A stretch of DNA of 32,000 nucleotides from Candidatus Saccharibacteria bacterium oral taxon 488 (GTDB taxonomy: Bacteria; Patescibacteriota; Saccharimonadia; Saccharimonadales; Saccharimonadaceae): the NCBI GenBank assembly GCA_010202845.1, contig CP047921.1:690001-722000 (forward strand), given 5' to 3'. Every line of letters begins with the position of its first letter. Position 1 is the first letter of the stretch. The notes beneath the pieces are model-generated. The model was not told the DNA's origin, ran no database searches, and worked only from the letters and a program-made list of their open reading frames with translations. Positions 94-29,532 of this stretch are shown here, one piece after another. Both the position numbers and the translations under genes were made by a program.

Positions 94-122
94 TCGACAA
101 AACTCATACTTTTCATTATACT
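94..122 (+). promoter_or_regulatory. Promoter of the MscS gene: TCGACA-17-TATACT, 6 nt to ATG (leaderless)
   Basis: -35 at 94-99, 17-nt spacer, -10 at 117-122, ATG at 129. No SD. Confidence 0.6.
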
Positions 123-128
123 AAACTC

Positions 129-1031
129 ATGACGGATACGCTTATCAAACAACTGTTAAATTCGTCGCGCTTTGATGAATGGATGACTGAGCATGGACTA
201 GGCTGGCTGGTAAGCGAGCGGATGGTTGAAACAGTCAGTATCGTCATTGGCGCGGTTATCGTTTATTATTTTGGCCGCATGTTTATCACCTGGGCGATCC
301 GTTACGCGATCCATTCCACTGCCAAGCACCGCTCGTGGCACCGCAAAGATATCGAAAAGCGCGAAAATACGCTGACGCAGCTGATCCGTAGTTTTTGGCG
401 CATCACTATCATTGCCTACATCGCCGCCATGGTCGCCAGTAAGTTATTCTACTTCGACTTGTCACCACTGTTTGCCAGCGCCGGCATCATTGGCGTAGCG
501 CTCGGATTTGGTGCACAATCACTTGTCAAAGATTTTCTGGCCGGCATCTTTATCATCGCTGAAAATCAATATCGCGTCGGCGATATCGTTGATGTCATGG
601 GTGCGAGCGGCACTGTCGAGCGCGTCGGCACCAGGTCAACCGTGCTCCGCGATGCTGATGGTAATGTGCACTACTTACCAAATGGCACCATCCAGCATGT
701 CATCAACAAAACGATGGGGTATAGCATGTCGCGCTTTACCTTGCAGCTTGATCCAAGTACCGACATCAGCCGCGCCGCTGATATCATCAACGAGACCGGC
801 CAGCAATTGAGCAAGGAAAAATCTTGGGACAAGAAAATTATTGAACCGCCAAAATTTGTCTCCGTCGGCGATATCACCGGCCGCTCGGTCGAATTGATCG
901 TTGCCGGTAAGGTCCAGCCATCAGATCAATGGGCGGTTACCTCAGAGATGCGCCGCCGACTCCTCAAAGAATTTGAAAAACAAGAGATCGAGCTAGCTGT
1001 CATCCCAACGGCGATAACGCATAAAAAGTAA
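129..1031 (+). CDS. Small-conductance mechanosensitive channel (MscS family)
   Basis: MscS core 'LVKDFLAGIFIIAENQYRVGDIVDV' preceded by TM helices. Start moved from TTG 84 to ATG 129 because a TCGACA-17-TATACT promoter ends 6 nt upstream of ATG 129. Confidence 0.85.
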   Translation: MTDTLIKQLLNSSRFDEWMTEHGLGWLVSERMVETVSIVIGAVIVYYFGRMFITWAIRYAIHSTAKHRSWHRKDIEKRENTLTQLIRSFWRITIIAYIAAMVASKLFYFDLSPLFASAGIIGVALGFGAQSLVKDFLAGIFIIAENQYRVGDIVDVMGASGTVERVGTRSTVLRDADGNVHYLPNGTIQHVINKTMGYSMSRFTLQLDPSTDISRAADIINETGQQLSKEKSWDKKIIEPPKFVSVGDITGRSVELIVAGKVQPSDQWAVTSEMRRRLLKEFEKQEIELAVIPTAITHKK

Positions 1032-1038
1032 TCATAAC

Positions 1039-1455
1039 TCACTCTGGCGAACTGTCTTGACCCTGTGTCGTCGTACCGCCCGCGCCATTGCCACTACCAC
1101 TGACGCCCAGCTGATCATCGCTCAACACATCGCTAGCAAACGCCCGCGCACCATCGGCTTTCTTTTCTTCTTGCTTATATTTTTGCAGAAAATCATCCAG
1201 CACTTTGCCCGTCACCTCACCCTGCGCCTCAAACATGTCTCGATTATGATTATTGGAATTATCAATCTGCGCTCGATACGGTACATAGTCCGGCCGACTC
1301 AAATCCACTCGGAAAGCATCTGACGAGTAATATAAGTGCATCGAGATACCAACGAGCACGATCGACACCACGATCACGCTAATTACCATCGTCGGTAACT
1401 TATGCTGCATAATTAACCTGACCATCCGGCGACCGAGTCGCTTGAACTTATCCAC
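1039..1455 (-). CDS. Hypothetical membrane-anchored protein (one N-terminal TM helix, Gly/Thr-rich C-terminus)
   Basis: 138-aa ORF. GTG start at 1455 with GGAGG 5 nt upstream. 8-nt overlap with the stop of the upstream ORF (operon-internal). TM 'LPTMVISVIVVSIVLVGISMHLYY'. No family recognised. Confidence 0.6.
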   Translation of the reverse strand: MDKFKRLGRRMVRLIMQHKLPTMVISVIVVSIVLVGISMHLYYSSDAFRVDLSRPDYVPYRAQIDNSNNHNRDMFEAQGEVTGKVLDDFLQKYKQEEKKADGARAFASDVLSDDQLGVSGSGNGAGGTTTQGQDSSPE

Positions 1456-1990
1456 GACTGCCTCCGCTCGATAGCTTTACCTTGAGCTGTTCCACCGCCA
1501 CGCGATAATCCGCCGCCAGTTTACTCATCGTCGTCACCGACTCACTGACCTGTCGACGTGCGTCGCGCGTCTTGATCAGCTGTGCGTAAAATTCGCCCGG
1601 TTTGTCGGTACAATCTGTCTTGACCAACGCCGTCAAATTGGACTCATACTCATTGTACTGCTGAGCAAACGCCTTGCGCGCTTCCTCGTAGTCGCGAGCG
1701 ATCATCACCATCCGCGAGCTATCAATCTGCGCTAGCGCCAAGCGGCTATTTAGTTTGGCGATGAGATTAGTCGAGATCGTGTTATATGCTTGGCCGGCGT
1801 TAACCCGCAGCAAGGCGTCGTTATGCTGAATCCGCTGCAATGTTGAACGAATGGACTGGCACTGACTGCGGATCAGATGGAGCGGCGGTGAACTCGGCGC
1901 AGTCTGCGCCACAGCAATACCCGACCGTATCATTACGCCGGCCAGACTAATGCCGCACACAAAAAACGCGAGATTACGAAGATATTTCAT
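1448..1990 (-). CDS. Hypothetical secreted protein (signal peptide plus helical region)
   Basis: 180-aa ORF. N-terminal signal-like 'MKYLRNLAFFVCGISLAGVMIRSGIAVAQT'. Its own TTGACC-17-GATAAT promoter ends 7 nt from the ATG. No family recognised. Confidence 0.6.
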   Translation of the reverse strand: MKYLRNLAFFVCGISLAGVMIRSGIAVAQTAPSSPPLHLIRSQCQSIRSTLQRIQHNDALLRVNAGQAYNTISTNLIAKLNSRLALAQIDSSRMVMIARDYEEARKAFAQQYNEYESNLTALVKTDCTDKPGEFYAQLIKTRDARRQVSESVTTMSKLAADYRVAVEQLKVKLSSGGSRG

Positions 1991-1997
1991 CTTTTTT

Positions 1998-2026
1998 ATT
2001 ATCTCGCGTTTTTGCGTTTAGGTCAA
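1998..2026 (-). promoter_or_regulatory. Promoter of the 180-aa/138-aa operon: TTGACC-17-GATAAT, 7 nt to ATG 1990
   Basis: The reverse complement reads TTGACC (2026-2021), a 17-nt spacer and GATAAT (2003-1998). Confidence 0.6.
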
Positions 2027-2357: not shown

Positions 2358-2579
2358 TTATTTTTTGCGAAAGAGTTGCACGACTTCAGTAAATAATTTT
2401 ACTGGAGACAGCCACTCAGTTGCTTGAGCGATGTTGGACACCGCCGCTTCGGCTTGGTTGACGAGGCGCTTAAGCTTCGTCAGCAGTGAAATTATTACAC
2501 CGAACAAGACGATAATCGTCACCGAGTGGATAATGATCACTACGGTCATCAGTATAATAACTGTTTGCATGTCTTCCAT
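2358..2579 (-). CDS. Small membrane protein, DUF948/YtxG-like (tentative)
   Basis: 73-aa ORF with one TM helix followed by an amphipathic helix. It sits directly upstream of the YtxH gene, as in Firmicute ytxG-ytxH pairs. AAAGGAAAGG SD and a consensus promoter lie upstream. Confidence 0.5.
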   Translation of the reverse strand: MEDMQTVIILMTVVIIIHSVTIIVLFGVIISLLTKLKRLVNQAEAAVSNIAQATEWLSPVKLFTEVVQLFRKK

Positions 2580-2624
2580 ACCTTTCCTTTGTTACTGTTT
2601 ATGTTTGTCGTATTGACTGTGGCT

Positions 2625-2653
2625 ATGATAGCATAGGCAGTTTGAAATGTCAA
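2625..2653 (-). promoter_or_regulatory. Near-consensus promoter of the DUF948-like/YtxH pair: TTGACA-17-TATCAT
   Basis: The reverse complement reads TTGACA (2653-2648), a 17-nt spacer and TATCAT (2630-2625). A ~40-nt leader carries an AAAGGAAAGG SD. Confidence 0.7.
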
Positions 2654-2673: not shown

Positions 2674-3438
2674 TCACTTTGCAGCAATGAGGCCGTCCCG
2701 TCGCAGACCATCTAGTGCCGCCGCAAATCGCGGATCATCCTGTAGCTCGGCGGTGATTTCGGCCAGCGACCGACCGTCAACGTATCGACGCAAGATCTCG
2801 CCACGCATCTGACGGAGACTGCCAGTGAATTGTGATTGCTTGGTGTAATGACGACTGGCGGACAATTTACCCTTTCCCTGAGATTTGAGCTCACTACCAT
2901 AGTCCATCAGTGCCCAAAACCACTGACGCGGATTTGCCTGGTCCATCGTCCGCTCGACAATAGGCAGTATGTCACGATCCGCTACCGCCGTCTGGTCCGC
3001 AAAGAAATGATTGAGATAGACGGTGCGAATATTGGTCTCAATGAACGGCGTTGGTACTTGGTAAGTATAGTTCATGATAGCACCAGCAGTATTGACGCCA
3101 ATGCCCGGCAGCTGGACAAGGTCATGAAGGGTGGCCGCCAGAGCACCACCAGTGATAGCTCGCGCTGTTTGGTGAATGTACCGAGCACGGCGGTTATAGC
3201 CCAACCCCTGCCACGCGCGGAGCACCTCGGTCAGCTCGGCCGCTGCCAGCGACTCAATGTCTGGAAACTCTGTGGTAAATTCTGTAAACTTCGCCAAGAC
3301 GCGAGCAACTTGCGTTTGCTGCAACATCAGCTCACTCACCAGCACATAGTACAGGGTTGGCCGGTCACGCCATGGCATTGGCCGGTACAGTTCGCGGCCC
3401 TTTTGGTGGATCAGTCCCTGGAATTCATCAGTCGTCAT
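2674..3438 (-). CDS. HhH-GPD DNA glycosylase, MutY/Nth-like, cysteine-free and lacking a NUDIX-like C-terminal domain
   Basis: 'VSELMLQQTQVARV' (MutY-type catalytic Glu region) and HhH 'LVQLPGIGVNTAGAI'. The 254-aa protein has zero Cys residues. TATACT lies 6 nt upstream of the ATG. Confidence 0.75.
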   Translation of the reverse strand: MTTDEFQGLIHQKGRELYRPMPWRDRPTLYYVLVSELMLQQTQVARVLAKFTEFTTEFPDIESLAAAELTEVLRAWQGLGYNRRARYIHQTARAITGGALAATLHDLVQLPGIGVNTAGAIMNYTYQVPTPFIETNIRTVYLNHFFADQTAVADRDILPIVERTMDQANPRQWFWALMDYGSELKSQGKGKLSASRHYTKQSQFTGSLRQMRGEILRRYVDGRSLAEITAELQDDPRFAAALDGLRRDGLIAAK

Positions 3439-3444
3439 TGCTTT

Positions 3445-3450
3445 AGTATA
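3445..3450 (-). promoter_or_regulatory. -10 box TATACT, 6 nt upstream of the MutY-like ATG 3438
   Basis: The reverse complement of 3445-3450 is TATACT. No convincing -35 and no SD. Confidence 0.45.
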
Positions 3451-3478
3451 CGCGAATAAAACTCACAACACCTAATTG

Positions 3479-3487
3479 TGCTATAAT
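3479..3487 (+). promoter_or_regulatory. Extended -10 TGcTATAAT, 9 nt upstream of the VIT1 ATG 3497
   Basis: TG at 3479-3480, TATAAT at 3482-3487. No SD between the box and the ATG. Confidence 0.6.
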
Positions 3488-3496
3488 GGCACGGTT

Positions 3497-4030
3497 ATGA
3501 AAATATTTTTTAGACGATACATTTCAGAATTTGTCTACGGTGCGGTGGACGGCACAGTCACGACCTTTGCCGTCGTGGCAGCTTCGGCTGGCGCCGGGAT
3601 TTCCAGCGCGATCATCCTTATCTTGGGGGTTGCAAATTTGATCGCCGATGGTTTTTCAATGGGCGCTAGTGCTTACCTGGCAGCCAGCGCCGAGCACGAA
3701 GAATCAGCCCGCGACACCCAAAAGCGAGCATCCCCTAAGATCATTGGTGCAATAACCTTCCTAGCTTTCGTTGTAGTCGGTAGCGTACCGGTATTGCCGT
3801 ATTTAGTCGACGTCGTTGCAGTCTCAAAAGTACCAGGCACCACCCTGTTTTACGTCAGCTCCGCACTGACGGCGGTGACGTTCCTAGCAATTGGCTTCAC
3901 CAAGGGTAAAGTTGGCAAGCAATCACCATGGCGAGAAGCAGTTATCACCCTCCTCCTCGGAGCGGTCGCCGCTGGACTGGCGTACTTTGCCGGTGATGTA
4001 TTGGCGGCGTGGTTGGGCGTTCAGTTATAA
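3497..4030 (+). CDS. VIT1/CCC1-family iron/manganese transporter
   Basis: 'FVYGAVDGTVTTFAVVAASAGAG' VIT-family N-terminal motif plus 5 hydrophobic helices. Start moved from TTG 3476 to ATG 3497 because TGcTATAAT ends 9 nt upstream. Confidence 0.75.
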   Translation: MKIFFRRYISEFVYGAVDGTVTTFAVVAASAGAGISSAIILILGVANLIADGFSMGASAYLAASAEHEESARDTQKRASPKIIGAITFLAFVVVGSVPVLPYLVDVVAVSKVPGTTLFYVSSALTAVTFLAIGFTKGKVGKQSPWREAVITLLLGAVAAGLAYFAGDVLAAWLGVQL

Positions 4031-4041: not shown

Positions 4042-4563
4042 TCAGATGCCACCGAGTAATCTTTCCCGGTACGCCCAGGCCTCATCATACGATAGATACG
4101 GTACGCTATCTGTTACATTATTGAGAGATCCCTTTGGTAGTTTTTGCGCTTGCGCCATAAAGTATACGGCGGGCCTGCCAAATTTCCCGTAATCCCAATT
4201 ACGAGGGGCATATTCATCAAGAAACCGTGTTGCAGCAACTGCCACGAACCCGTACTTAGCGTATTTACGACATAAATCCTCACCAAAACAATCTAATTTT
4301 GTCACTCCAAAAGATAACACCGACGGCATCATAATATCTAGCGACTGTTTCACAGGGTTTTGTCTTGAGCTAAAGATATTTGCCAAATTATCCCCCTCAA
4401 GAGCAAACCCAGCCTGATCATTATACATAAGAACCGTCACCATCGTTTCGTAATCAACCTGTGAGTAATCAGACAAAAAACACTCCCTGCTATCACCAGC
4501 CATAGCTTGTTTTATTGCCACGTAAAATTCTTCGGCAGTAACGCGACGTAATTTCTCGTGCAT
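4042..4563 (-). CDS. Hypothetical protein (possible N-acyltransferase-like fold, unverified)
   Basis: 173-aa ORF with a strong TTGACC-17-TGaTATAAA promoter ending 9 nt from the ATG. 'LDCFGEDLCRKYAKYGFVAVA' is reminiscent of a GNAT beta4-alpha3 region, but no motif is decisive. Confidence 0.5.
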   Translation of the reverse strand: MHEKLRRVTAEEFYVAIKQAMAGDSRECFLSDYSQVDYETMVTVLMYNDQAGFALEGDNLANIFSSRQNPVKQSLDIMMPSVLSFGVTKLDCFGEDLCRKYAKYGFVAVAATRFLDEYAPRNWDYGKFGRPAVYFMAQAQKLPKGSLNNVTDSVPYLSYDEAWAYRERLLGGI

Positions 4564-4572
4564 CGTGTGAAT

Positions 4573-4601
4573 TTTATATCATACTATAAAAATATGGTCA
4601 A
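4573..4601 (-). promoter_or_regulatory. Promoter TTGACC-17-TGaTATAAA, 9 nt upstream of ATG 4563
   Basis: The reverse complement reads TTGACC (4601-4596), a 17-nt spacer and TATAAA (4578-4573). Confidence 0.6.
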
Positions 4602-4617: not shown

Positions 4618-5031
4618 TCAATCGGGCCACCACTTCAACAAAAAATCCCGATAACCCGGCGCGAGTTTGTCGGTAGCTTCAACTTCTGTCCGCGTCAACC
4701 AGACTGGTCGCTCCTCACCGCCATCACACGCTCGGTCCGGTAGTTCAATGTTACCGTCAACCGTGGCCGTGTAGCCAAGAATAATTTTATGGTCTCTTAC
4801 GGTACCGCCCTGTGGATCGCGCACATAAAAATCAGCTGGGGTCGCATCAATTGTAACGCCCAGCTCCTCGCGCAATTCCCGCCTCAATGCCACGTCAGGC
4901 GTTTCACCAGCGTCAATATGCCCGCCCGGCAGGCCAAAACCATCATCGTGCGGATAATACATCACTAGCGCACGCTTGCCATCACTACTATACAACGCTA
5001 CTTTTACACTAACTTCGTGTCGATCATACAT
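4618..5031 (-). CDS. NUDIX hydrolase
   Basis: Nudix box 'GGHIDAGETPDVALRRELREELGV' (GX5EX7REUXEEXGU). Start placed at ATG 5031 (MYDRHEV...) because TGgTATAGT ends 7 nt upstream. The ORF track starts at GTG 5040. Confidence 0.85.
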   Translation of the reverse strand: MYDRHEVSVKVALYSSDGKRALVMYYPHDDGFGLPGGHIDAGETPDVALRRELREELGVTIDATPADFYVRDPQGGTVRDHKIILGYTATVDGNIELPDRACDGGEERPVWLTRTEVEATDKLAPGYRDFLLKWWPD

Positions 5032-5038
5032 CAATGTC

Positions 5039-5047
5039 ACTATACCA
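5039..5047 (-). promoter_or_regulatory. Extended -10 TGgTATAGT, 7 nt upstream of the NUDIX ATG 5031
   Basis: The reverse complement of 5039-5047 is TGGTATAGT. Confidence 0.5.
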
Positions 5048-5078
5048 AACCTAGACCCCGACCGACAAGTAACTTCAC

Positions 5079-5909
5079 TTACCTCGTCTGTTTTTTAGCT
5101 ATTTGCTCAAAGACACCATCGCCCAAGAGATGCCGTGCGTAGAAGAGAACTCTCGCCAATTTACCAACAAGATACCGACGTCGTGGATGCTTACTCTCAA
5201 TAACTGTTGCTACTGTATACGCGACCACGCTAGGCGGTGACATGGTCCTATATGACTGAGATAAGTTGTGCGATATTGCCTTTGCCACGCCGCTATAGGC
5301 CCCATTTGACGAATAACGAGTAAGCGGCTCTTCAGCTAATTTGTAGAAATTTGTAGCGATCAAGCCAGGCTCAACTATCACAAGCTTGATGTTGTATTCC
5401 TGCAGCTCTAGCCGCAAGCTATCGGAAAACCCCTCGATAGCGTGCTTTGAAGCATGATACCAGGCACCGAGCGGAAAATACACTCTGCCTCCAACCGATG
5501 ACATATTAATAATCAAGCCCGAGCCCGCCTCTCTCATGCTAGGCAGCACAAGCTGCGTCAGCCTAGCCAACCCAAATACATTCACCTCAAACTGCCTGCG
5601 GGCCTGTTCAATTGGAACGTCCTCTACCGCCCCCAGTAATCCATAGCCAGCATTATTGATAAGTACATCTATTCTTCCCTGCTCGTCACAAATCTTTTTT
5701 ACCGCAGCCTCAAGTGATTTTTCATCTTTCATATCACCTGGTATTGGCCGAAGGCCTTTAATTTCTTGAAGCACCTCACTATTTCGAGCAAATCCGTACA
5801 CTATGTGGCCTTTCTGCAAAAGCAGCTCGGCGGTCGCTCTTCCGATACCGCTGGATGCTCCAGTAATTAACACTACTTTATGATTTGAATTATACTTTTT
5901 TCTACTCAT
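5079..5909 (-). CDS. Short-chain dehydrogenase/reductase (classical SDR)
   Basis: 'VVLITGASSGIGRATA' (TGxxxGxG), 'NNAG', 'YHASKHA' (YxxxK). Start placed at ATG 5909 (MSRKKY...), 6 nt downstream of a TATACT -10 box. Confidence 0.85.
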   Translation of the reverse strand: MSRKKYNSNHKVVLITGASSGIGRATAELLLQKGHIVYGFARNSEVLQEIKGLRPIPGDMKDEKSLEAAVKKICDEQGRIDVLINNAGYGLLGAVEDVPIEQARRQFEVNVFGLARLTQLVLPSMREAGSGLIINMSSVGGRVYFPLGAWYHASKHAIEGFSDSLRLELQEYNIKLVIVEPGLIATNFYKLAEEPLTRYSSNGAYSGVAKAISHNLSQSYRTMSPPSVVAYTVATVIESKHPRRRYLVGKLARVLFYARHLLGDGVFEQIAKKQTR

Positions 5910-5915
5910 AATAGT

Positions 5916-5947
5916 AGTATAATCTATGGAGTATACTCTATAGTCAA
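5916..5947 (-). promoter_or_regulatory. MerR-type promoter of the SDR gene: TTGACT-20-TATACT, 6 nt to ATG 5909
   Basis: The reverse complement reads TTGACT (5947-5942), a 20-nt spacer and TATACT (5921-5916). The over-long spacer is the MerR-family hallmark. Confidence 0.65.
5924..5943. promoter_or_regulatory. 20-bp palindromic operator CTATGGAGTATACTCTATAG (putative MerR-regulator binding site)
   Basis: 9 of 10 symmetric base pairs, centred on GTATAC. It fills the spacer of the SDR promoter in the merR-SDR divergent region. Confidence 0.65.
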
Positions 5948-5973
5948 TAGGTAATAATGAGGGAGGTTTTACC

Positions 5974-6324
5974 ATGCTAATTCATCAACTTTCCAAAAAA
6001 TCTGGTGTTTCTATTGATACCATTCGTTACTATACAAAACTCGGTATTTTACCGGTAACACAACGTCCTGCTGGAAGCCGCAGTTATTCAGACTACGACG
6101 AGAGTGCACTCGAGTACCTCACGGAGATACGCCTCGCTAAATCAGCAGGCTTTACGCTGATGGAGATCAAGCAATACATCAAGGAATGGAATGACGGCCA
6201 GATTACACCCGATACGGCTATTGATATATTGCATAAAAAGATTGCGATGGTACGAAAGAAAAAGTCTGAGCTTGATGCAATAGAAGCGATATTAAAAAGC
6301 AAAATAACACAGCTCCATTCCTAG
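5974..6324 (+). CDS. MerR-family transcriptional regulator
   Basis: N-terminal HTH 'IHQLSKKSGVSIDTIRYYTKLGIL' followed by a coiled-coil dimerisation helix. GGGAGG lies 7 nt upstream of the ATG. Divergent from the SDR gene. No C-terminal Cys metal-binding motif. Confidence 0.85.
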   Translation: MLIHQLSKKSGVSIDTIRYYTKLGILPVTQRPAGSRSYSDYDESALEYLTEIRLAKSAGFTLMEIKQYIKEWNDGQITPDTAIDILHKKIAMVRKKKSELDAIEAILKSKITQLHS

Positions 6325-6369: not shown

Positions 6370-8211
6370 CTACAGTCCCAACTCCTTTATCTGCGCTGAA
6401 TCAACCGTTGATGGCGAATCCATCATCACGTCAACGCCCGAGCCGTTCTTTGGAAAGGCCAAGGTTTCGCGGACGTTCGTTTCGTTAATGAGCTCCATGA
6501 GGATGCGGTCGACGCCAAAGGCACAGCCAGCGTGCGGCGGTGCACCGTATTTGAAGGCGTTGAGCATAGCACCAAACTTTTCCTCGACGTAGCTTTCACT
6601 AAAGCCAAGTAGGTCAAATACTTTGTACAGCACCGCCGGGTTGTGGTTGCGCACGCCACCGGAGCAAATTTCGTAGCCGTTCATCACCATGTCGAATTGG
6701 TCAGCCACGATGGCCAGTTTTTCGGCATCGGTCGTCGCCGATTCCAGCACCTCTAGTCCGCCCTTTGGCATACCGAATGGGTTATGACCAAAATCAAGTT
6801 TCTTGTCATGGTCGTCCCATTCATAGAATGGAAAGTCGATAATCCAAGCCAGGGCTACCTCATCCGATTTTTTCAGGTCGAAGTGAGCAGCAAATTCGTT
6901 TCGCAGGCGACCAAGCACAGTGTTAACGACTGGGCGAGTGTCGGCACCGAAGAATATAACATCACCATCCTCAGGATTCATCTTCTCTATAAGTAATCTA
7001 TGTTCTTCGTCCGACAAGTATTTTGCCACTGGCGAAATCGCATCATAGCCATAAAAGTTACTACCAACAACCGGGATCGTATAACCCTGCGCCTCGTCTG
7101 CATTTTTGATTGTCACGTACTTGATGTAAGCCAAACCGCCCGCCCCTTCACTTTTGGCAATGTCAGTAAACTGGTCGATTTGCTTGCGGCTCAAACTAGC
7201 GCCGTTTTTCACGCAAATCGCCTTGATGCACTCAGCGTTTTTGAACACGCCAAACTCGGTATTGGCGAACACGTCGGTCAGCTTAATCAGTTCCATGCCA
7301 AAACGCAAATCCGGCTTGTCCGAGCCGTAGGTCTCCATGGCGTCGCGGTAAGAAATCCGCGGAATTGGACTACCGTCACCAACCGCGAGACCGCTCAAGT
7401 CCAGCAACTTTTTGCCAGCAAACTCAGTCGCTAGCTGCCGCATCAATGGCTCGACTTCCCGGCGAACCACCTCACCGTCTTCAACAAAGCTCATCTCCAG
7501 GTCTAGCTGATAAAACTCACCGTACAGTCGATCAGCTCGCGGATCTTCATCGCGGAAACACGCCGCCAGCTGGTAATACCGCGGCACGCCGCCAACCATC
7601 AGCAGCTGCTTGAACTGCTGGGGTGCTTGCGGCAAAGCGTAAAACTTATTTTCCTGCAAACGGCTCGGAATGAGGAAATCACGCGCGCCCTCGGGGCTGG
7701 AATTTGCCAAAATCGGCGTCTGAATCTCGATGAAGTCGCGGTCGTCCATATACTGATGCATCCGGCGGTACATTTCAGCGCGTTTTTTCAGCATCTCCTG
7801 CATCTTCGGCCGGCGCAAGTCGAGATAGCGATATTTGAAACGCAAATCCTCACCCGCCTGGTTTTCTTCGGCAAATGGTTGGATCGGCAAGGTTTCAGCT
7901 CGGTTGAGAATTTCCAGATTTTCCACCACAATTTCCACATTACCACTGGCAATATTTGGATTTTTCAAACCTTCGCCACGCTCCGTCACCACGCCGCTAG
8001 CACGAACGACAAACTCATCACGCAGGCTTTCCGCCAGACGAAACGCTTCCGCCTGCTCGGGATTAATCACCAACTGTACCAAGCCGGTATGGTCACGCAT
8101 GTCAATAAAAATCAGCCCGCCGTGATCGCGCCGGGAATGCACCCAGCCAGCCACTGTCATCATTTCCCCAACACTATCAGGGGTATGTATCGCCAAAACT
8201 CTCTTTTTCAT
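6370..8211 (-). CDS. aspS: Aspartate--tRNA ligase (bacterial type with insertion domain)
   Basis: N-terminal OB fold 'VAGWVHSRRDHGGLIFIDMRD', class II motif 2 'CFRDEDPRADR', motif 3 'GAPPHAGCAFGVDRI'. 613 aa. Confidence 0.95.
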   Translation of the reverse strand: MKKRVLAIHTPDSVGEMMTVAGWVHSRRDHGGLIFIDMRDHTGLVQLVINPEQAEAFRLAESLRDEFVVRASGVVTERGEGLKNPNIASGNVEIVVENLEILNRAETLPIQPFAEENQAGEDLRFKYRYLDLRRPKMQEMLKKRAEMYRRMHQYMDDRDFIEIQTPILANSSPEGARDFLIPSRLQENKFYALPQAPQQFKQLLMVGGVPRYYQLAACFRDEDPRADRLYGEFYQLDLEMSFVEDGEVVRREVEPLMRQLATEFAGKKLLDLSGLAVGDGSPIPRISYRDAMETYGSDKPDLRFGMELIKLTDVFANTEFGVFKNAECIKAICVKNGASLSRKQIDQFTDIAKSEGAGGLAYIKYVTIKNADEAQGYTIPVVGSNFYGYDAISPVAKYLSDEEHRLLIEKMNPEDGDVIFFGADTRPVVNTVLGRLRNEFAAHFDLKKSDEVALAWIIDFPFYEWDDHDKKLDFGHNPFGMPKGGLEVLESATTDAEKLAIVADQFDMVMNGYEICSGGVRNHNPAVLYKVFDLLGFSESYVEEKFGAMLNAFKYGAPPHAGCAFGVDRILMELINETNVRETLAFPKNGSGVDVMMDSPSTVDSAQIKELGL

Positions 8212-8218
8212 ATCTGTT

Positions 8219-8227
8219 ATTATAGCA
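8219..8227 (-). promoter_or_regulatory. Extended -10 TGcTATAAT, 7 nt upstream of the aspS ATG 8211, containing the ruvB TAA stop
   Basis: The reverse complement of 8219-8227 is TGCTATAAT. The ruvB stop TAA (8222-8220) forms nucleotides 3-5 of the hexamer. Confidence 0.5.
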
Positions 8228-21328: not shown

Positions 21329-21337
21329 ATTATAGCA
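21329..21337 (-). promoter_or_regulatory. Extended -10 TGcTATAAT, 6 nt upstream of the DUF192 ATG 21322
   Basis: The reverse complement of 21329-21337 is TGCTATAAT. Confidence 0.55.
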
Positions 21338-22264: not shown

Positions 22265-22266
22265 GA

Positions 22267-22776
22267 CTACTTATCCTTTGGCTTATGGTATTTTTTATAA
22301 AATTTGTGGGGATTCTTTGCCAGCTCCTTATTCAGTACTTTGTTATCGGTAGCATATTTGTATCGATGCGCCGCATCACCCTCACGCACATCAACCAAGA
22401 ACTTGCCCGCAACAGTACGACGTCCTATTAGAACTGGGTAGAGATTACCAGAACGATCCGAGAGGTTAAATAGTGCTTTAATTTTACGCCCCTTGATAGT
22501 CACGGTAAAATGTGTTCTATAGCGAATTTGCTCATGTCCAGATGAGCTGCGTACCATTGCTACAGTGAAATCCGTTCGCTTGAAAATCTTCCCGTTATAG
22601 TAAGGCGAGCCTTTGCCGAATAGGGCAAACTTTAACACACCATCTTTATCAACACGAATATTGCTCGCCCATACCGATGAGCTGTCTGCACCAGTATCAA
22701 CTTTGGCCGATATGCCAATAGCCCGCCGACCAAAATCAACACGGACATTTCGTCCAATAACCTGCCTAGCCAACAT
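22267..22776 (-). CDS. Retropepsin-like aspartic protease of the RimK-associated family (PF05618-type, RimB-like)
   Basis: 'AKVDTGADSSSVWA' with D-T-G-A at 22687-22698. Size and position (2 nt upstream of rimK) fit the family. ATG 22776 overlaps the upstream gene by 11 nt. Confidence 0.7.
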   Translation of the reverse strand: MLARQVIGRNVRVDFGRRAIGISAKVDTGADSSSVWASNIRVDKDGVLKFALFGKGSPYYNGKIFKRTDFTVAMVRSSSGHEQIRYRTHFTVTIKGRKIKALFNLSDRSGNLYPVLIGRRTVAGKFLVDVREGDAAHRYKYATDNKVLNKELAKNPHKFYKKYHKPKDK

Positions 22777-23683
22777 CAATACCTACCATTTCTAGAAGCA
22801 TCTCACTATATTTTCTCACTTTCTCATCCTGAAACGCACCAGAGGAAACCTGCGGTGCATTATTGACCTCCAGCAAATACGACTTATTGTTGGTACTGTC
22901 AAACATCACGTCAACACCCGCAACTTGCAGCCTCGCGATAGATGCAGCTTTAACGCAGACATCAATAACTTCGGGCGAAACCGACTCGATCGGTACGACC
23001 TGTGCGACACCACCTTGAGAAGTGTTGTTAAGATGTGAGCCGTCGACACCCTTGCGTTCAATTACTAAAACTGGCTTACTGTTAAAAACCAACACCCGCA
23101 AATCGCCAGAGTTTGGAATAAACTCCTGCAAGACAAATCGTTTGTCTGGGTACTGCTTTTGGATATCGCTAATCTCTGCGACCGACTCAACTAAAAAATT
23201 TGAACGACCCTTTGAGCCTTCATTGTCTTTCATAATTGCCTTTCCGCCAAACTCTGGAAAGCGTCGGATCATTTCATCTATATTACCATAAAAGGTGTGT
23301 GGCCAATTTTTAATACCATTAAACCACAGTAAAAATTGTGTACTTATCTTATTATCCAGCATTAGCCGATTCAAGTACTCGTCTGTATAACGAATGCCAA
23401 AATACTCACAATACTGCACAATAGCCTGAGCTTCATTCGCCATCTTACCAATATGACGAATGACAACCAAATCAAAATCACGAAGATCAAACTTCTTCTG
23501 AGAGTGATAGATATTAATTGCATATGCACTTAACTCAAAAAATAGCTCAGATATTTCACAGTGTTCAATCTCAACACTCTCCCCGATACTATTTTGTACA
23601 CGGCTAGCAAAACCTCCAGCCTTGCCCCTTGCTTCTTCGCTCACCGCTCGTGCTATCAGTAAGACTTTCTTTTTACTCTTCAT
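22766..23683 (-). CDS. Divergent RimK-like ATP-grasp ligase (second paralog, unknown specificity)
   Basis: ATP-grasp landmarks: 'DNKISTQFLL', 'GGKAIMKDNEGSKGRSNFLV', 'FVLQEFIPNSGDLRVLVF', 'HLNNTSQGG', 'VAGVDVMFDSTNNKSYLLEVNNAPQV'. Alignable with the adjacent RimK but clearly divergent. Confidence 0.75.
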   Translation of the reverse strand: MKSKKKVLLIARAVSEEARGKAGGFASRVQNSIGESVEIEHCEISELFFELSAYAINIYHSQKKFDLRDFDLVVIRHIGKMANEAQAIVQYCEYFGIRYTDEYLNRLMLDNKISTQFLLWFNGIKNWPHTFYGNIDEMIRRFPEFGGKAIMKDNEGSKGRSNFLVESVAEISDIQKQYPDKRFVLQEFIPNSGDLRVLVFNSKPVLVIERKGVDGSHLNNTSQGGVAQVVPIESVSPEVIDVCVKAASIARLQVAGVDVMFDSTNNKSYLLEVNNAPQVSSGAFQDEKVRKYSEMLLEMVGIDVG

Positions 23684-23725
23684 TTACAGGATCCCTTTCT
23701 GTGGCTTTTTAATAAATTATATGGG

Positions 23726-25042
23726 TTATTGTATGTCGTAGGAAATATGGTCTGGATTTGTTGGATCATAACGTACGCTAAGAATATGACGCAATTTTTC
23801 TAGCCTTTCTTCTTCTGGAAGTCGGGCAATATCATTCAACCAGCCAGCGGCTTTTTGTGCACCCACAAAATATGCACTATCACGCGTATCAATTGCGCCG
23901 CCGCGACGGGTACGATGAACCTGACGTTGAGCATTTGAGCGAGCCTTATCAATATCTACCACACCACCATTTTGCTCCATCAACAACACTTCACGCCGCC
24001 AAAGAATTTCGAATGTCTCACGATAATTACGCGGATCACCGCCTCGATCGGCACCTGCCTGCAGACCAATTGATAAATAATACTGCTTGCCGGGAACACG
24101 TTTTTGACCCGTAATAACCTGTTCTAGACACGTTGCCAAACCCTCTTCAAAATCTAGCCCACCAGGACCACTTCCCCGACCACCATGAACCACCGCCTCA
24201 TGAAATGCAACACCTATAGCGGCTAGCTCATTAGGAAAATCTGCCCGGTTCTCACCATAGTATACCGTTTTCTCACGAATACTTGTGTGTGCTGATTTAC
24301 CCGAATCTAGTTGTACACTCCATTCTTCTGGCAACCCAGCGACCTGTATCACTGCTTTACAAACATCAATAGCCTTATCCACGGGCACCGGCTCTTTAGA
24401 TGCCTTATCAATCATGGAGCCAATCTCTGGATATATATTTCTTAAGTCATCATGAATAATTTTCATAGTTTCATCATTTAGCCCAAGCACCTCATGGCCA
24501 CCCTCATCAATAGGCTGTTTTTCAAGAAGACTCAACAGTTCAGTCGCCTCTTTACGCTGCGAATTACTCACCAAATCAATTAACTCGTTTACCATCGCAG
24601 CAAAAGCCGGTTTATCAATACCTCCCATAATATCTAGCGACAACTCTGCAGCTAAACGGCGGTGCTCAAGGCAATCTGATGATGCTACCGACCCAAGAGC
24701 CAACTGCAACTCCTCGTAACGAAACAGTTCGCCCGTCTTGCGAATGATTTTATCTATTAGTTCTTCATGTGTCTGTGATCGATCCTCAGATGGAGTGCGC
24801 ATTAGTTCATTAAGGAGGCCCTCATAGAGCTCAATCGTCTCTTTAACCGTCTCTGTGTTGTGTCGTCCGTCCATCATCTGCCGTGGTTCGGTTAAGTCTG
24901 GATTATTAAGAAATTCATGAATTCTATTCTGACGTTCAGTAGCACTAGTGTTCAGGTTAAGGTAATGCTCATAGCCAGGTGTCGCTGTAAAAGGATTTTG
25001 GTCAAATATCTGTTTTTTAGAATCTATTGTACTAGTTACCAT
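23726..25042 (-). CDS. DUF1704/MATCAP-like metallocarboxypeptidase (QEGLA-motif family), tentative
   Basis: 'FHEAVVH' (HEXXXH, 24185-24202) followed 13 aa later by 'EEGLA' (24134-24148). 438 aa from ATG 25042. TTGTAT-17-TATTAT promoter ends 7 nt upstream. Confidence 0.6.
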   Translation of the reverse strand: MVTSTIDSKKQIFDQNPFTATPGYEHYLNLNTSATERQNRIHEFLNNPDLTEPRQMMDGRHNTETVKETIELYEGLLNELMRTPSEDRSQTHEELIDKIIRKTGELFRYEELQLALGSVASSDCLEHRRLAAELSLDIMGGIDKPAFAAMVNELIDLVSNSQRKEATELLSLLEKQPIDEGGHEVLGLNDETMKIIHDDLRNIYPEIGSMIDKASKEPVPVDKAIDVCKAVIQVAGLPEEWSVQLDSGKSAHTSIREKTVYYGENRADFPNELAAIGVAFHEAVVHGGRGSGPGGLDFEEGLATCLEQVITGQKRVPGKQYYLSIGLQAGADRGGDPRNYRETFEILWRREVLLMEQNGGVVDIDKARSNAQRQVHRTRRGGAIDTRDSAYFVGAQKAAGWLNDIARLPEEERLEKLRHILSVRYDPTNPDHISYDIQ

Positions 25043-25049
25043 AGCTAAT

Positions 25050-25078
25050 ATAATAACATAAATCTTATAATAATACAA
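25050..25078 (-). promoter_or_regulatory. Promoter of the MATCAP-like/ATP-grasp/protease/rimK cassette: TTGTAT-17-TATTAT, 7 nt to ATG 25042
   Basis: The reverse complement reads TTGTAT (25078-25073), a 17-nt spacer and TATTAT (25055-25050). No SD. Confidence 0.55.
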
Positions 25079-25204
25079 TATAGTAGTCCTGGCCGAACAA
25101 CCCCCTCCTCACACCGTCAAACCACCCTAGCAATCGCCCCTACGTTTTGATTAGCTTAGTCGTCATACAACAAACGTCGACGACGTTGTAATAACACTCT
25201 TAAG

Positions 25205-28200
25205 TTATTTCTGTTTACCCCCTTGTCTTCTCGCTACCACAACCACCACTGCCGTGATAATCGATAGTCCGGCCAGAATAGCCAGCGCATAAGCATAGCC
25301 TGACAGCAGATAAATTAAAGCCAACGTCACGCCGACAGCGCCCCAGATAGTAATCAGTCGCCTGCCGAGCGCCAAACCGATGATAACCATCAGCGAATGC
25401 TCGACTAAGAACAATATCTTCATAACATTGTCCCCCGCTAGCGCCAGGACAAGGGTTGATAAACTAAATACAGCGAGCGCTAGTGCTAAGTGCGCAATGG
25501 TAGATATCTGAGTATATCCTAGCCAGCGCCAGGACATCACCGCCCCCGACAAAATTGCCACTGAACAGAGATATGGCATCACGATACTATGAATCGGTAC
25601 AATTAGCATATGAACCGTAAACAGAATACCACACAGCACCAAAAGAACACCCGAGTCGAAGTATAGAAGACTCTTCTTCGGCAACCCCTCAGCTATTAGG
25701 GCGCTGCCATTGACCGCCCACATTAGTGTTACTAGCAGTACCGCCTCCGTTGCGACACTGGCCGGCATAGCCATCAGCAGTAAAGTCATCGACCAGCCGA
25801 TAGCACTCCAAAATGATGCATAATACCAATAAACTGATAATTTCTTGGTTCGCGCAGTCACGGCGGCGCCATAAAACACCGCAAAGATAATTAGTGAAAC
25901 GATCGACATAAACTCAAGCTTAACGCCGAGCCATTGTGCAGTTAAGTAGAATAACAATACCAAACTTGGATGCGCCAATATCGCCATCGGCCGCCAATCC
26001 TGCTTGGCATACACTACCATATAAAGTGCCGCGACAGCTGCCAACCAGCCCAAGATTTTGAACGGTAATCCATACGTCGTCAATAGATTTATCATCGGTA
26101 ATATCACCGCTGGTACCGTAGCAGCCAGCAGAGTCATATCGCTAGTGATTGACGCTCGCTTATTCATCGCTAACGACCAATATACTACCCCGAAGCCGAC
26201 GAGCACCACCCAAGCAGTGATAGTGAAATTGTCGCTTAGCGGCACGCGTAGCCAATGCAAGAACAGCAACACCAAAGCAATTGTCGCCAAGTATGCTCCG
26301 CCCAGATAACCATCCTCACGCCGCCGATAAAACGCATAGTACAGCAGCGCTACTAACGGCAGCCAAACCGCCGGATGAATAGACGAAAAGATGATCAAGA
26401 TAGCCGCTCCAATAGCAGAATATAACAACAATTCGCGGCACTTAACCGCCGCCTCTTTGCGGTAATTATACAGCCACTCTACCAATAGTAGCAACGACAA
26501 GCCGTTCAGCCACGCCATCAAAATGGCAATATCTTCGCCAGCAATCTTGAAATACGAAGCTATCAGCAGTGCCATCAGAAGTAGAGAAGCATGAATACCA
26601 ATCACTAGACCGTAAGCTTTCTCACGCCACGCAGCGATACCCATGATGACAGCAGCAACCGCCACCGAATCTGACAGATACAGCATGCCTTCTCCTGCTG
26701 GATAAGCAGTCAAAAAAGCTAAGGCTATAAACACTGTCATTAACCACCAAGCGGCCGCAGCGCCGTACACTAGTATTGCTTGACTTTTAGTAATATTTGG
26801 GCGCTTCAAAACCAGTAATCGGCAGACAACCGGCAGGAAAGTCATAAGCATAAAGATAGAGTAATGTGTATGCAAGGTTGTTATGGGATCGAGGCTAAAT
26901 AGCCTGACGCCAGCCGGCACTAACAAAATTCCAGACATTACTACCATGCCGCCAAAACGGGCGCGGCGCAGCAATGAAAGCGCCATAAAACTCACTACCG
27001 AAACCATACTCAACAGGATAAATATGATCATATCTCTTAGCGGACTTTCGACGCCAGCTATAGTCGATACAGCAGCCAGCGACGCAACGAAACTAATCCA
27101 CAACACTATTTCGTGCTGCTTGTCGGGCTGCTTTTGGGCATACATCGACCTGATAGACCAAATTATATTACCAAGTGCCGCCACACCCAGCGCTATACCT
27201 GTGACCAGACCATCATTATTTGACAGATACATAGTAAAACTAGCAGTCGCCGCCATCAGCAGCACGCGCGCCGTCGTTAGTTCATACGTGCGCATATCCT
27301 TTGATTTTTCAACAAAAGCAACAGTAAAATAATATATAACGCTGATGAGCAGCAGCATGCTGACGTCAAGCGTTCCCATATGCACCGACGAACCGATAGC
27401 GAGAAGCAAAGTGGACGGGACGATAAACGGATTAACCAGCGTCAACGGCTCGGTGAATTGGCGCGGAAAACGATTAGAAAAATACGCAGCCAAGGTCATC
27501 AGGCATCCGAACAATAGCACCGCAGCATAATACCACACCAACTGAGCATGCATAACAGCCGGCAAGCTGGTCGTCATCGTAAACATCGACAGCAGCGAAA
27601 TATAGGCGAGCGGTTGGCTATTGAGCCTGACTGTAGCATCCACGCATAAGAAAGTGCCGATGAAGGAAGTGGCAAGCCAACACAGCGCTGGATCAATCCC
27701 CAAAAGCAAGTGCATGCTCCAGCCGCCGATCGGCACAGCAGCCAGCGCCGTACCAATAAACGCCGTTGAGGCCGGCTTTAAGATCGGTAATCTAGCGTAT
27801 AACACCTGGCCAGTAACATAATAGACAAAAATAAACAGCCAGACCAAACTAAACCTGAGCTGCGCCGAAAGTTCAATCGTTTGTGCCAATAATAATATAC
27901 CGGCGGTTAGCAATAATGATGCCGTATAGAGCGCCACATTGATGGTAGTTTGACGATTTTTCTCTTTTTCTTTATTGCTGACAGGGGATAGCCGCTCGAC
28001 AATCTGTGTCTTTTCGTCGGGAATATTAGTCTTTCCTTCAATTGGCGCGGCATCAGTAGGTGGCGCAGCATCAGGCTCTTCCTCTTCGTCGCCAATTAGC
28101 ACAAGACCAGTAGACTGCGAAGCTGCAGCCTGATTCTCGGTAATAAGCTTGGCTTGACCGTCGCTACCTTCAATTTTCGCACGGCCATTCTGCGCATCGC

Positions 28201-28318
28201 ACACGCCGTCCCAATAACCGCGCTGATAATCCTCAGATTGACGAGACAGCCGATTACCGCCTCCCTGCGCCACCTTAATTATCACGATGATAATCACTAA
28301 CAGAAAAATTAATTCCAT
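25205..28318 (-). CDS. Very large polytopic membrane protein (1037 aa, on the order of 25-30 TM helices), unknown function
   Basis: N-terminal TM, then a ~120-aa soluble segment ('DYQRGYWDGVCDAQNGR', acidic 'GDEEEEPD'), then almost continuous hydrophobic helices to the C-terminus. AAGGGGA SD and TGcTATACT upstream. Confidence 0.7.
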   Translation of the reverse strand: MELIFLLVIIIVIIKVAQGGGNRLSRQSEDYQRGYWDGVCDAQNGRAKIEGSDGQAKLITENQAAASQSTGLVLIGDEEEEPDAAPPTDAAPIEGKTNIPDEKTQIVERLSPVSNKEKEKNRQTTINVALYTASLLLTAGILLLAQTIELSAQLRFSLVWLFIFVYYVTGQVLYARLPILKPASTAFIGTALAAVPIGGWSMHLLLGIDPALCWLATSFIGTFLCVDATVRLNSQPLAYISLLSMFTMTTSLPAVMHAQLVWYYAAVLLFGCLMTLAAYFSNRFPRQFTEPLTLVNPFIVPSTLLLAIGSSVHMGTLDVSMLLLISVIYYFTVAFVEKSKDMRTYELTTARVLLMAATASFTMYLSNNDGLVTGIALGVAALGNIIWSIRSMYAQKQPDKQHEIVLWISFVASLAAVSTIAGVESPLRDMIIFILLSMVSVVSFMALSLLRRARFGGMVVMSGILLVPAGVRLFSLDPITTLHTHYSIFMLMTFLPVVCRLLVLKRPNITKSQAILVYGAAAAWWLMTVFIALAFLTAYPAGEGMLYLSDSVAVAAVIMGIAAWREKAYGLVIGIHASLLLMALLIASYFKIAGEDIAILMAWLNGLSLLLLVEWLYNYRKEAAVKCRELLLYSAIGAAILIIFSSIHPAVWLPLVALLYYAFYRRREDGYLGGAYLATIALVLLFLHWLRVPLSDNFTITAWVVLVGFGVVYWSLAMNKRASITSDMTLLAATVPAVILPMINLLTTYGLPFKILGWLAAVAALYMVVYAKQDWRPMAILAHPSLVLLFYLTAQWLGVKLEFMSIVSLIIFAVFYGAAVTARTKKLSVYWYYASFWSAIGWSMTLLLMAMPASVATEAVLLVTLMWAVNGSALIAEGLPKKSLLYFDSGVLLVLCGILFTVHMLIVPIHSIVMPYLCSVAILSGAVMSWRWLGYTQISTIAHLALALAVFSLSTLVLALAGDNVMKILFLVEHSLMVIIGLALGRRLITIWGAVGVTLALIYLLSGYAYALAILAGLSIITAVVVVVARRQGGKQK

Positions 28319-28343
28319 GCTTAATTCCCCTTATGCTAAATTT

Positions 28344-28352
28344 AGTATAGCA
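28344..28352 (-). promoter_or_regulatory. Extended -10 TGcTATACT upstream of the 1037-aa membrane-protein gene (leadered)
   Basis: The reverse complement of 28344-28352 is TGCTATACT, followed by aaatttagcatAAGGGGAattaagcATG. Confidence 0.5.
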
Positions 28353-28379
28353 CGAGAAAACTTTTTATGGAGGAATTTG

Positions 28380-29495
28380 CTACGAAAACAACCCCCGCTT
28401 CCGTGCGCCATCAAACTGCTCCAGGAGTTCTCGCTGTTTCTTGCTGAGCTTAGTTGGCGTATCGACAATGACACCGACAATGTGCGGGCCGCGTTCATCA
28501 TTTCTCAGATGTGGCACGCCGTGGCCTGACAACTTAAAATCAGTCCCCGACTGGGTGCCGGCTGGGATTTTCATTCGCACCGTACCGTCCACGGTCTCGA
28601 CATCAATTTCCGTTCCCAATGCCGCATCAACCATCGAGATATGCTCTTCTGAAAGGATGATATCGCCTTCACGCGTGAACTTCTTATGGGCTTTGACGCG
28701 AATGTGAACGTATAGATCGCCGCGCGGGCCACCCTGAACCGCTTCGCCGCGACCATGCAGGCGGATCGTCGCGCCATCATCAATGCCAGCTGGGATCTTG
28801 ACCGTAATCTCCTGGCGCTGGCGAGTCGTACCCTTGCCGCCACAGACTGAACAGTTTTGCTCTGGGATCTTGCCACGGCCGTGACAGGTCGGGCAGGTGA
28901 CTGCTTGCTGAATTTGTCCAAAAATCGAGTTCATGACGCGAGTCTGCTGACCGGAGCCCTTGCAATCCTCACAGGTTTTTAAGCTATGACCTGGCTCGAC
29001 GCCATCGCCATGACAATGCTCACACTCAGCATCGAGCGTTATATTCAACTTCTTTTCTGCGCCAAACACCGCTTCCTCAAAGGTCAGCGTCACATTGGTT
29101 TCAACATCACGACCACGCCGCGAGCCACCCCGTGAACCAGCTGCGCTGCCACCAAAAAATTGGCTAAAAATATCGCCAAACATGCCGCCATCGCCACCAA
29201 AGTCGAACTGCACGTTTTGCCCACCAAAGCCACCAAAGCCTTCGAACGGATTACCGCCAAAGCCACCACCCGCCGCGCCGCCGACACCAGCATGACCAAA
29301 CTGGTCGTAGCGCTGGCGCTTTTGCTTGTCTTTTAGGACTTCATATGCCTCATTGACCTCTTTGAATTTGGCTTCATCACCGCCTTCTTTGTCGGGGTGG
29401 TACTTCACCGCTGCCTTACGAAAAGCCTTCTTGATCTCATCCTCAGAAGCGGTTTTCGACACACCTAACACTTCATAATAATCGCGCTTACTCAT
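28380..29495 (-). CDS. dnaJ: Molecular chaperone DnaJ (type I)
   Basis: J domain 'DYYEVLGV...YHPDK', G/F-rich region and four CxxCxGxG motifs ([32 protein letters not shown]). Confidence 0.95.
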
Positions 29496-29503
29496 ATATG
29501 TTC

Positions 29504-29532
29504 ATTATACGCTTTTAGCACTCGACATGCAA
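29504..29532 (-). promoter_or_regulatory. dnaJ promoter TTGCAT-17-TATAAT, 8 nt to ATG 29495
   Basis: The reverse complement reads TTGCAT (29532-29527, inside the CIRCE loop), a 17-nt spacer and TATAAT (29509-29504). No SD. Confidence 0.65.

Follow-up and report, generated by a model that had tools for sequence, protein, structure and literature searches.

Background

The closest described counterpart of the gene-start architecture discussed here is found in Deinococcus deserti, in which a leaderless layout was proved by differential RNA sequencing and proteomics and applies to 60% of the mRNAs (de Groot et al. 2014, PMC4007540). A similar arrangement characterizes the "group C" genomes of the gene finder GeneMarkS-2 (Actinobacteria and Deinococcus-Thermus), where a Pribnow box lies 6-8 nucleotides (nt) from the starts of first genes and a Shine-Dalgarno (SD) sequence precedes internal genes (Lomsadze et al. 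2018, PMC6028130), the predicted leaderless transcripts amounting to 25-50% of the total (PMC6028130). Mycobacteria are cited in the same paper as having more than 25% leaderless transcripts and a -10 element 6-8 nt from the start (Cortes 2013; Shell 2015, both as cited in PMC6028130). No genome of Saccharibacteria or of the Candidate Phyla Radiation (CPR) appears by name in the main text of the GeneMarkS-2 paper, full-text literature searches found no paper tying leaderless mRNAs or this box geometry to Saccharibacteria, Patescibacteria, CPR, TM7 or Nanosynbacter, and a TM7x transcriptome preprint makes no mention of promoters or start sites. Here we analyse a stretch of 32,000 nt from Candidatus Saccharibacteria bacterium oral taxon 488 (contig CP047921.1, positions 690,001 to 722,000), hereafter the window, in which about half of the gene starts are preceded at 6-10 nt by a hexamer resembling the sigma-70 -10 element. 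We refer to this hexamer as the box, to genes having it as box-led, and to genes preceded by an SD sequence as SD-led.

As in D. deserti, a TAnnnT-type -10 stands directly before the start codons of many genes, about half of those in the window, and SD-led genes coexist with these. Unlike in D. deserti, where GUG starts are common (176 are listed; PMC4007540), about 91% of the box-led starts are ATG and TGn-extended boxes dominate, and whereas the D. deserti layout has been proved experimentally, that of Saccharibacteria, which belong to another phylum, is deduced from sequence. The window is likewise similar to group C genomes in having the -10 box near the starts of first genes and SD sequences before operon-internal ones, and Saccharibacteria share the leaderless-type -10 at 6-8 nt with mycobacteria, which are however high-GC Actinobacteria. 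Mycobacteria also use GTG starts widely. Saccharibacteria would constitute a new lineage for the known leaderless architecture of group C. Oral Saccharibacteria live on Actinobacteria hosts, and the parallel may be regarded as suggestive.

A -10-like hexamer precedes about half of the gene starts in the window

The window has a G+C content of about 50%. It encodes about 31 proteins, most of them on the minus strand, besides a single tRNA-Lys. An initial annotation held that about half of the genes carry a -10-like hexamer, often with TGn, ending 6-10 nt before the ATG in place of an SD sequence, and listed 16 such sites. Re-reading the 50 nt upstream of each ATG reproduced the hexamers, TGn extensions and spacers at all 16 (Table 1), with the reservation that GATAAT before the 180-aa gene and TATAAA before the 173-aa gene are non-canonical -10 hexamers. 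None of the 16 sites has an SD sequence at a functional spacing; the one string resembling an SD, GGGAG before the DUF192 gene, stands only 1 nt from the ATG, too near for SD function. The genes assigned to the SD class were also listed correctly, including the 332-aa gene with its start at 18466.

Defining a strict box as a hexamer with T1, A2 and T6 and at least five of six matches to TATAAT, we find one 6-10 nt before 15 of the 31 gene starts, in agreement with the proportion claimed, as compared with 31 of all 989 ATGs in the window (3.1%; binomial p = 5e-15). When the 60-nt upstream regions were shuffled 2000 times, box-led starts numbered 0.85 on average and 6 at most.

As to the start codons themselves, ten of the 16 ATGs are the earliest possible start after an upstream in-frame stop (1990, 3438, 4563, 8211, 9218, 14184, 20097, 21322 and 29495, with 3497 nearly so), and for ruvB and PBP the in-frame stop lies immediately 5' of the ATG. 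Taking the ATG that follows the box shortens seven raw open reading frames (ORFs) in the window and lengthens none. For six of the shortened starts proposed by the initial annotation there is agreement with an outside gene caller, namely that of the public collection as applied to a metagenome contig bearing an AspS protein identical to that of the window; its products are of 300 (mscS), 177 (VIT1), 137 (NUDIX), 276 (SDR), 445 (M11-like) and 160 (ruvC) residues, and the 438-aa gene lies outside the caller's contig. Furthermore, the ruvC start yields the canonical N-terminus MRIIGIDPG, the SDR start is 14 residues ahead of the TGxxxGxG motif and, with the start at 29495, the J domain of DnaJ begins at residue 5. 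Family N-termini and Pfam domain starts give indirect support to the protein ends predicted from these start codons. The labels "metzincin-like" and "MATCAP-like", which had been attached to the 445-aa and 438-aa products, find no support in Pfam at the database thresholds.

Positional enrichment across Saccharibacteria

The AspS of the window occurs in identical form on two metagenome contigs, one of which is human oral. An AspS scan of species-representative genomes provided for comparison 42 loci of Saccharibacteria, 3 of Peribacteria and 35 others (mostly Alphaproteobacteria), each of at most 21.8 kb, and the closest genomes by AspS are Candidatus Saccharibacteria and Nanosynbacter metagenome-assembled genomes with at most 87% identity. 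ORFs were chosen mechanically as stop-to-stop frames of at least 120 codons, taken greedily by length and with the first ATG as the start. Among 642 Saccharibacteria ORFs, strict boxes occur 89, 42, 25, 33 and 10 times at spacers of 6, 7, 8, 9 and 10 nt, respectively, on a background of 4.3 per position, the peak being sharpest at 6-7 nt with a secondary peak at 9 nt. The corresponding numbers for 444 control ORFs are 1, 0, 0, 1 and 0 (background about 1.0 per position), and 83 ORFs of low-GC controls have none at 6-10 nt (background about 0.6 per position). Altogether 195 of the 642 Saccharibacteria ORFs (30%) have a box at 6-10 nt as compared with 24.7 ± 4.7 in dinucleotide-preserving shuffles, and the positional enrichment for which the initial annotation had suggested looking is thus present.

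The layout is found in 39 of the 41 ORF-bearing Saccharibacteria loci, down to 58% AspS identity, and box-led members occur in 89 of the 266 protein families, which shows that it is not an artefact of a single syntenic block. Seen from the promoter side, 101 of 242 extended -10 motifs have, 6-10 nt further on, an ATG with which an ORF of 80 codons or more begins, against 0 of 24 in the controls. The start codons found at spacers of 6-7 nt from extended -10 motifs in Saccharibacteria loci are ATG in 77 cases, GTG in 6 and TTG in 1, and ATG makes up 91% of the in-frame candidate starts of box-led genes as against 78% for SD-led ones, a preference in keeping with the known requirement of leaderless translation for a 5' AUG (PMC4007540). 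SD tetramers peak at 4-9 nt in Saccharibacteria and in controls alike, which indicates that the SD mode is also in use in Saccharibacteria. The base-frequency profile upstream of all 642 ORFs, taken without selection, has only small peaks at -14 (G), -11 and -9 (A), being blurred because the two classes are mixed and the spacing is variable.

A few Peribacteria genes, in a small sample of 34 ORFs, have TTGACA-17-TATTAT-6-ATG or TGnTATAAT near the ATG (Table 1).

Proposed mode of initiation

We propose that the 16 boxes would act as -10 elements of housekeeping (sigma-70-type) promoters, most of them of the extended TGnTATAAT kind that would require little or no -35. The usual starting point of RNA polymerase is 7 nt downstream of the -10 (PMC12641261), and a spacer of 6 nt would place +1 on the A of the ATG, spacers of 7-10 nt giving leaders of 0-4 nt. 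The mRNA would then have neither 5' leader nor SD sequence, and the ribosome with initiator tRNA would bind the 5'-terminal AUG directly; operon-internal genes and a minority of first genes would instead rely on a GGAGG-type SD in a short leader, a like promoter being situated 17-45 nt upstream. Directly observed are the motif and its constant placement, the features that liken it to a promoter, and the extent to which it is conserved and spread among Saccharibacteria, and from these we infer the position of the transcription start and the mode of ribosome binding. That box-led genes are transcribed from a sigma-70 -10 at the ATG and translated leaderless seems to us very likely on the sequence evidence.

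A variant of this proposal is that the promoters are real, and that transcription starts a few nt upstream, such that most mRNAs would have leaders of 1-5 nt and no strictly 5'-terminal AUG. Spacers of 8-10 nt at four of the 16 sites, the secondary 9-nt peak in the comparative set and the purine found as seventh base after the hexamer in several 9-nt spacers are all in agreement with it. With the main peak at 6 nt, however, the A of the ATG coincides with the usual start 7 nt downstream of the -10 (PMC12641261), which makes the variant unlikely, and functionally it amounts to the same pathway, leaders of up to about 5 nt using leaderless initiation (PMC4007540). For VIT1 and the 173-aa and M11-like genes, which have spacers of 9-10 nt, a leader of 2-4 nt is indeed more likely than a strictly 5'-terminal ATG, and since the leaderless pathway tolerates leaders of up to about 5 nt (PMC4007540), these would still fall within it.

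A number of observations weigh against leaderless initiation from the boxes. About one of the 16 boxes is expected by chance, and the M11-like (9840) and 438-aa (25042) sites, which lie in AT-rich DNA with several boxes, are the weakest and could be such chance occurrences. Spacers of 9-10 nt imply short leaders and not a 5'-terminal ATG, and in coverage-inferred start data for TM7x the distance from the -10 to the start is more variable (PMC12641261). In addition, some box-led genes follow a same-strand gene without an intervening terminator (HIT-ruvB-aspS and ruvC-PBP), and read-through transcripts with internal, SD-less ATGs probably exist as well. It should also be mentioned that the comparative loci were all gathered around a single anchor gene, aspS, and that their ORFs and first-ATG starts are naive calls.

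Promoter or RNA signal

The A/T-rich hexamer could also be thought of as an RNA-level non-SD ribosome-binding or enhancer element of the "group B", Bacteroidota type, acting on leadered or polycistronic mRNAs and not as a promoter. SD-less internal initiation must indeed sometimes happen, since aspS and PBP are found 7-8 nt behind a same-strand gene without a terminator, and the first 36 nt are weakly structured in both gene classes, although this latter property is non-discriminating, structure being weaker at the start than in the gene interior for box-led and SD-led genes alike. Several DNA-promoter signatures would however be superfluous for an RNA element. TGn precedes the hexamer in 103 of the 195 box-led genes (53%), where about 12 are expected, TTG occurs exactly 17 base pairs (bp) upstream in 24 of them as compared with 3.7 at other offsets, there is an excess of T at -5, two bases before TG, as in TRTGn, and T1, A2 and T6 are invariant with the middle bases varying. 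Furthermore, the identical motif occurs at a distance from start codons that have an SD sequence, a TGnTATA(A/C)T-type -10 being found 17-45 nt upstream of the SD-led HIT, CYTH, 1037-aa and yebC genes and the 73-aa/ytxH unit (Table 1). Reporters in Saccharibacteria are driven by promoter fragments of tuf and rpsJ from TM7x and Southlakia, which have long leaders with an SD sequence and contain TATAAT-type -10 elements (TGaTATAAT in rpsJ; gtTATAAT and caCTATAAT in the two from tuf; PMC10633639 Table S4).

Boxes are in addition depleted before tightly coupled internal genes, preceding 11 of 115 genes (10%) that lie at most 15 nt behind a same-strand gene versus 68 of 134 at gaps of 16-100 nt, and it is this depletion that GeneMarkS-2 uses as a criterion for separating promoters from non-SD ribosome-binding motifs (PMC6028130). 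Exceptions to the first-gene rule are aspS and PBP, in which the promoter lies inside the end of the upstream gene. Taken together, the TGn extension, the TTG at 17 bp, the same motif at a distance, the operon-internal depletion and the MerR-type case described below, in which a 20-bp spacer holds an operator, indicate that the boxes are promoters, and we find the RNA element a very improbable explanation. That AT-rich intergenic DNA and an after-the-fact choice of the ATG following a box together produced the pattern, as might be feared from the fact that the "best ATG" was originally picked by eye and that longer alternatives exist at seven starts, can practically be dismissed, since ten starts are the first possible codon of the ORF, the outside gene caller picked the same starts, about one box-led start is expected from shuffles and the all-ATG background as against 15 observed, and the mechanical first-ATG rule gives a like peak in the 642 ORFs with 0 of 83 in the low-GC controls.

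Seven boxes of the window lack TGn; three of these have a -35 hexamer with five of six matches (mscS, the 180-aa gene and SDR), and most TGn-bearing boxes have a poor one; the 173-aa gene has both elements, and HhH-GPD, comEC and dnaJ have neither. This distribution appears to reflect, in part, the trade-off expected of extended -10 promoters. A scan for two-hexamer promoters gave 36 hits in the first half of the window, where 15.4 were expected, and 20 in the second, where 17.3 were expected, and it recovered the mscS, 180-aa and NUDIX promoters; it is only partly useful. Most promoters are of the extended -10 type with a weak -35. Rfam and tRNA scans of the window returned the tRNA-Lys at 20200-20276 alone, and hence no leader RNA elements competing with leaderless initiation.

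Three promoters (3445-3453, 20104-20112 and 29504-29512) have in common a gcgTATA(C/A)T without TGn or recognisable -35, and this may be a second type of context upstream of the box. The ruvB stop codon is located inside the aspS hexamer (8219-8224) and the ruvC stop inside that of PBP1 (14191-14196), with 7-8 nt between the genes, and the predicted aspS and PBP1 promoters are in this way built into the end of the preceding gene.

The SDR promoter

MerR-family promoters of the merT, zntA and copA type are recognized by an over-long spacer of 19-20 bp, a dyad operator within it and a divergent merR-family gene. All three are found at the SDR gene (5907-5976 including the divergent gene), where TTGACT is separated by a 20-bp spacer from TATACT, with the ATG 6 nt further on. 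The spacer between -35 and -10 contains the 20-bp palindrome CTATGGAGTATACTCTATAG at 5924-5943, and the divergent gene at 5974-6324 on the plus strand encodes a MerR-family protein with the Pfam domains MerR_1 and MerR-DNA-bind. Judged by this layout, the SDR box serves as -10 element in a promoter of the classical MerR type. The long spacer, the dyad in it and the divergent gene are as in the merT, zntA and copA type, whereas the regulated SDR transcript, unlike these, is predicted to be leaderless, with its ATG 6 nt after the -10.

Conservation among orthologs

Orthologs could be compared for seven of the 16 sites. The box is retained in 27 of 38 orthologs of aspS, 9 of 10 of mscS (at 7-9 nt), 8 of 11 of VIT1 and 8 of 16 of the HhH-GPD gene, and the 180-aa gene orthologs keep GATAAT together with a TTGAC at 17 bp. 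In the aspS alignment TGnTATAAT-N7-ATG persists, and the sequence 5' of TGn is unrelated between clades. Among SD-led genes, no box is present in orthologs of the 138-aa (0 of 17), ytxH (0 of 11) and 73-aa (0 of 12) genes. Protein families are mostly either box-led or SD-led, and the suggestion of the initial annotation that two initiation modes coexist is upheld, with each gene family tending to retain its own class. Some distant aspS orthologs nevertheless have a GGAG-type SD instead of the box, once with a GTG start (loci L015, L018, L030, L032, L038 and L039, at about 9950-10000 in each), and judging from these upstream sequences genes toggle between box-led and SD-led initiation over evolution. 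For the genes from ruvB through dnaJ, the 10 kb flanking aspS hold no ortholog in any of the 42 related loci, owing to the loss of synteny on that side, and this limited the comparison to the seven sites.

Synteny with other Saccharibacteria ends at the aspS start (8220-9735 compared with loci L003-L043), the mscS-to-VIT1 side being shared; none of the 42 related loci has ruvB, HIT, ruvA, PBP1 or ruvC at a distance of up to 10 kb from aspS.

Implications

We lean slightly towards the view that leaderless initiation is class-wide in Saccharimonadia and the default for the first genes of transcription units, comprising about one third to one half of the genes. If this is true, the toggling of orthologs between box and SD, the stop codons inside the -10 of the next gene and the hints from Peribacteria would be part of the same picture, gene-start annotation would be touched in thousands of CPR genomes, and the trait would be either an inherited one of the Terrabacteria type or a convergence with the Actinobacteria hosts. 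The box-to-ATG rule could serve to fix start codons in Saccharibacteria and in other CPR genomes. Abundant leaderless translation, as in Actinobacteria, Deinococcus-Thermus and archaea, would furthermore be found in an ultrasmall epibiont whose ribosome is reduced, and this would provide a tangible case in which to ask if leaderless initiation accompanies ribosome and genome reduction. Saccharibacteria have become genetically tractable only recently, and a TGnTATAAT-N6-ATG module of 15-20 bp would be a much smaller expression element than the current long SD-led tuf and rpsJ fragments.

Table 1. Positions of the elements at box-led and SD-led gene starts of the window, and of box-like sites in Peribacteria loci
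Feature	Coordinates	Strand	Elements
Box-led genes
mscS	94-131	+	-35 TCGACA 94-99, 17 bp, -10 TATACT 117-122, 6 nt, ATG 129
180-aa gene	1988-2026	-	-35 TTGACC 2026-2021, 17 bp, -10 GATAAT 2003-1998, 7 nt, ATG 1990
HhH-GPD glycosylase gene (mutY-like in the initial annotation)	3436-3450	-	-10 TATACT 3450-3445, 6 nt, ATG 3438
VIT1 gene	3479-3499	+	TGcTATAAT 3479-3487, 9 nt, ATG 3497
173-aa gene	4561-4601	-	-35 TTGACC, 17 bp, TGaTATAAA (hexamer 4578-4573), 9 nt, ATG 4563
NUDIX gene	5029-5068	-	-35 TTGTCG 5068-5063, 18 bp, TGgTATAGT (hexamer 5044-5039), 7 nt, ATG 5031
SDR gene	5907-5947	-	-35 TTGACT 5947-5942, 20 bp, -10 TATACT 5921-5916, 6 nt, ATG 5909
aspS	8209-8227	-	TGcTATAAT (hexamer 8224-8219), 7 nt, ATG 8211
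ruvB	9216-9233	-	TGaTATAAT (hexamer 9230-9225), 6 nt, ATG 9218
445-aa M11-like gene	9824-9842	+	TATAAT 9824-9829, 10 nt, ATG 9840
PBP1 gene	14182-14199	-	TGgTATAAT (hexamer 14196-14191), 6 nt, ATG 14184
ruvC	14672-14689	-	TGcTATAAT (hexamer 14686-14681), 6 nt, ATG 14674
comEC	20095-20109	-	-10 TATACT 20109-20104, 6 nt, ATG 20097; after tRNA-Lys and terminator-like hairpin
DUF192 gene	21320-21337	-	TGcTATAAT (hexamer 21334-21329), 6 nt, ATG 21322
438-aa gene	25040-25058	-	TGtTATTAT (hexamer 25055-25050), 7 nt, ATG 25042
dnaJ	29493-29509	-	TATAAT 29509-29504, 8 nt, ATG 29495
SD-led genes
138-aa gene, inside operon	1453-1465	-	SD GGAGG 1465-1461, 5 nt, GTG 1455
73-aa/ytxH unit	2577-2653	-	TTGACA-17-TGnTATCAT 2653-2625, 45 nt, AAGGAA, ATG 2579
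HIT gene	9733-9761	-	TGgTATAAT (hexamer 9758-9753), 17 nt with SD GGAGG 9744-9740, ATG 9735
yebC	17408-17451	-	TGcTATACT (hexamer 17448-17443), 32 nt with GGAGG 17424-17420, ATG 17410
332-aa gene	18464-18477	-	SD GGAGG 18477-18473, 6 nt, ATG 18466; raw ORF over-extended to GTG 18550
1037-aa gene	28316-28352	-	TGcTATACT (hexamer 28349-28344), 25 nt with AAGGGGA, ATG 28318
CYTH gene	29551-29580	+	TGcTATACT (hexamer 29554-29559), 18 nt with GGAGG 29569-29573, ATG 29578
Peribacteria loci
Locus L044	~5150-5190, ~6670-6707		Box-like sites
Locus L045	~9490-9507		Box-like site
Locus L046	~11800-11830, ~13850-13872		Box-like sites

Other features of the window

The 1037-aa (25205-28318) and 438-aa (23726-25042) proteins have no Pfam match. 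The segment from 22000 to 26000, which spans the 438-aa gene and the second of the RimK-like ATP-grasp genes, has a G+C content of 43-46% as compared with 55-58% in the preceding 4 kb, and it may have been acquired; genes in its neighbourhood are those of DUF192, RimK, a Zn-protease and RimK. The tRNA-Lys (UUU) at 20200-20276 is on the minus strand with a promoter-like TTGAAA-17-TGnTAAAAT upstream (region 20167-20349), and directly 3' of it, just before the comEC promoter, there is a terminator-like hairpin of 10 bp.

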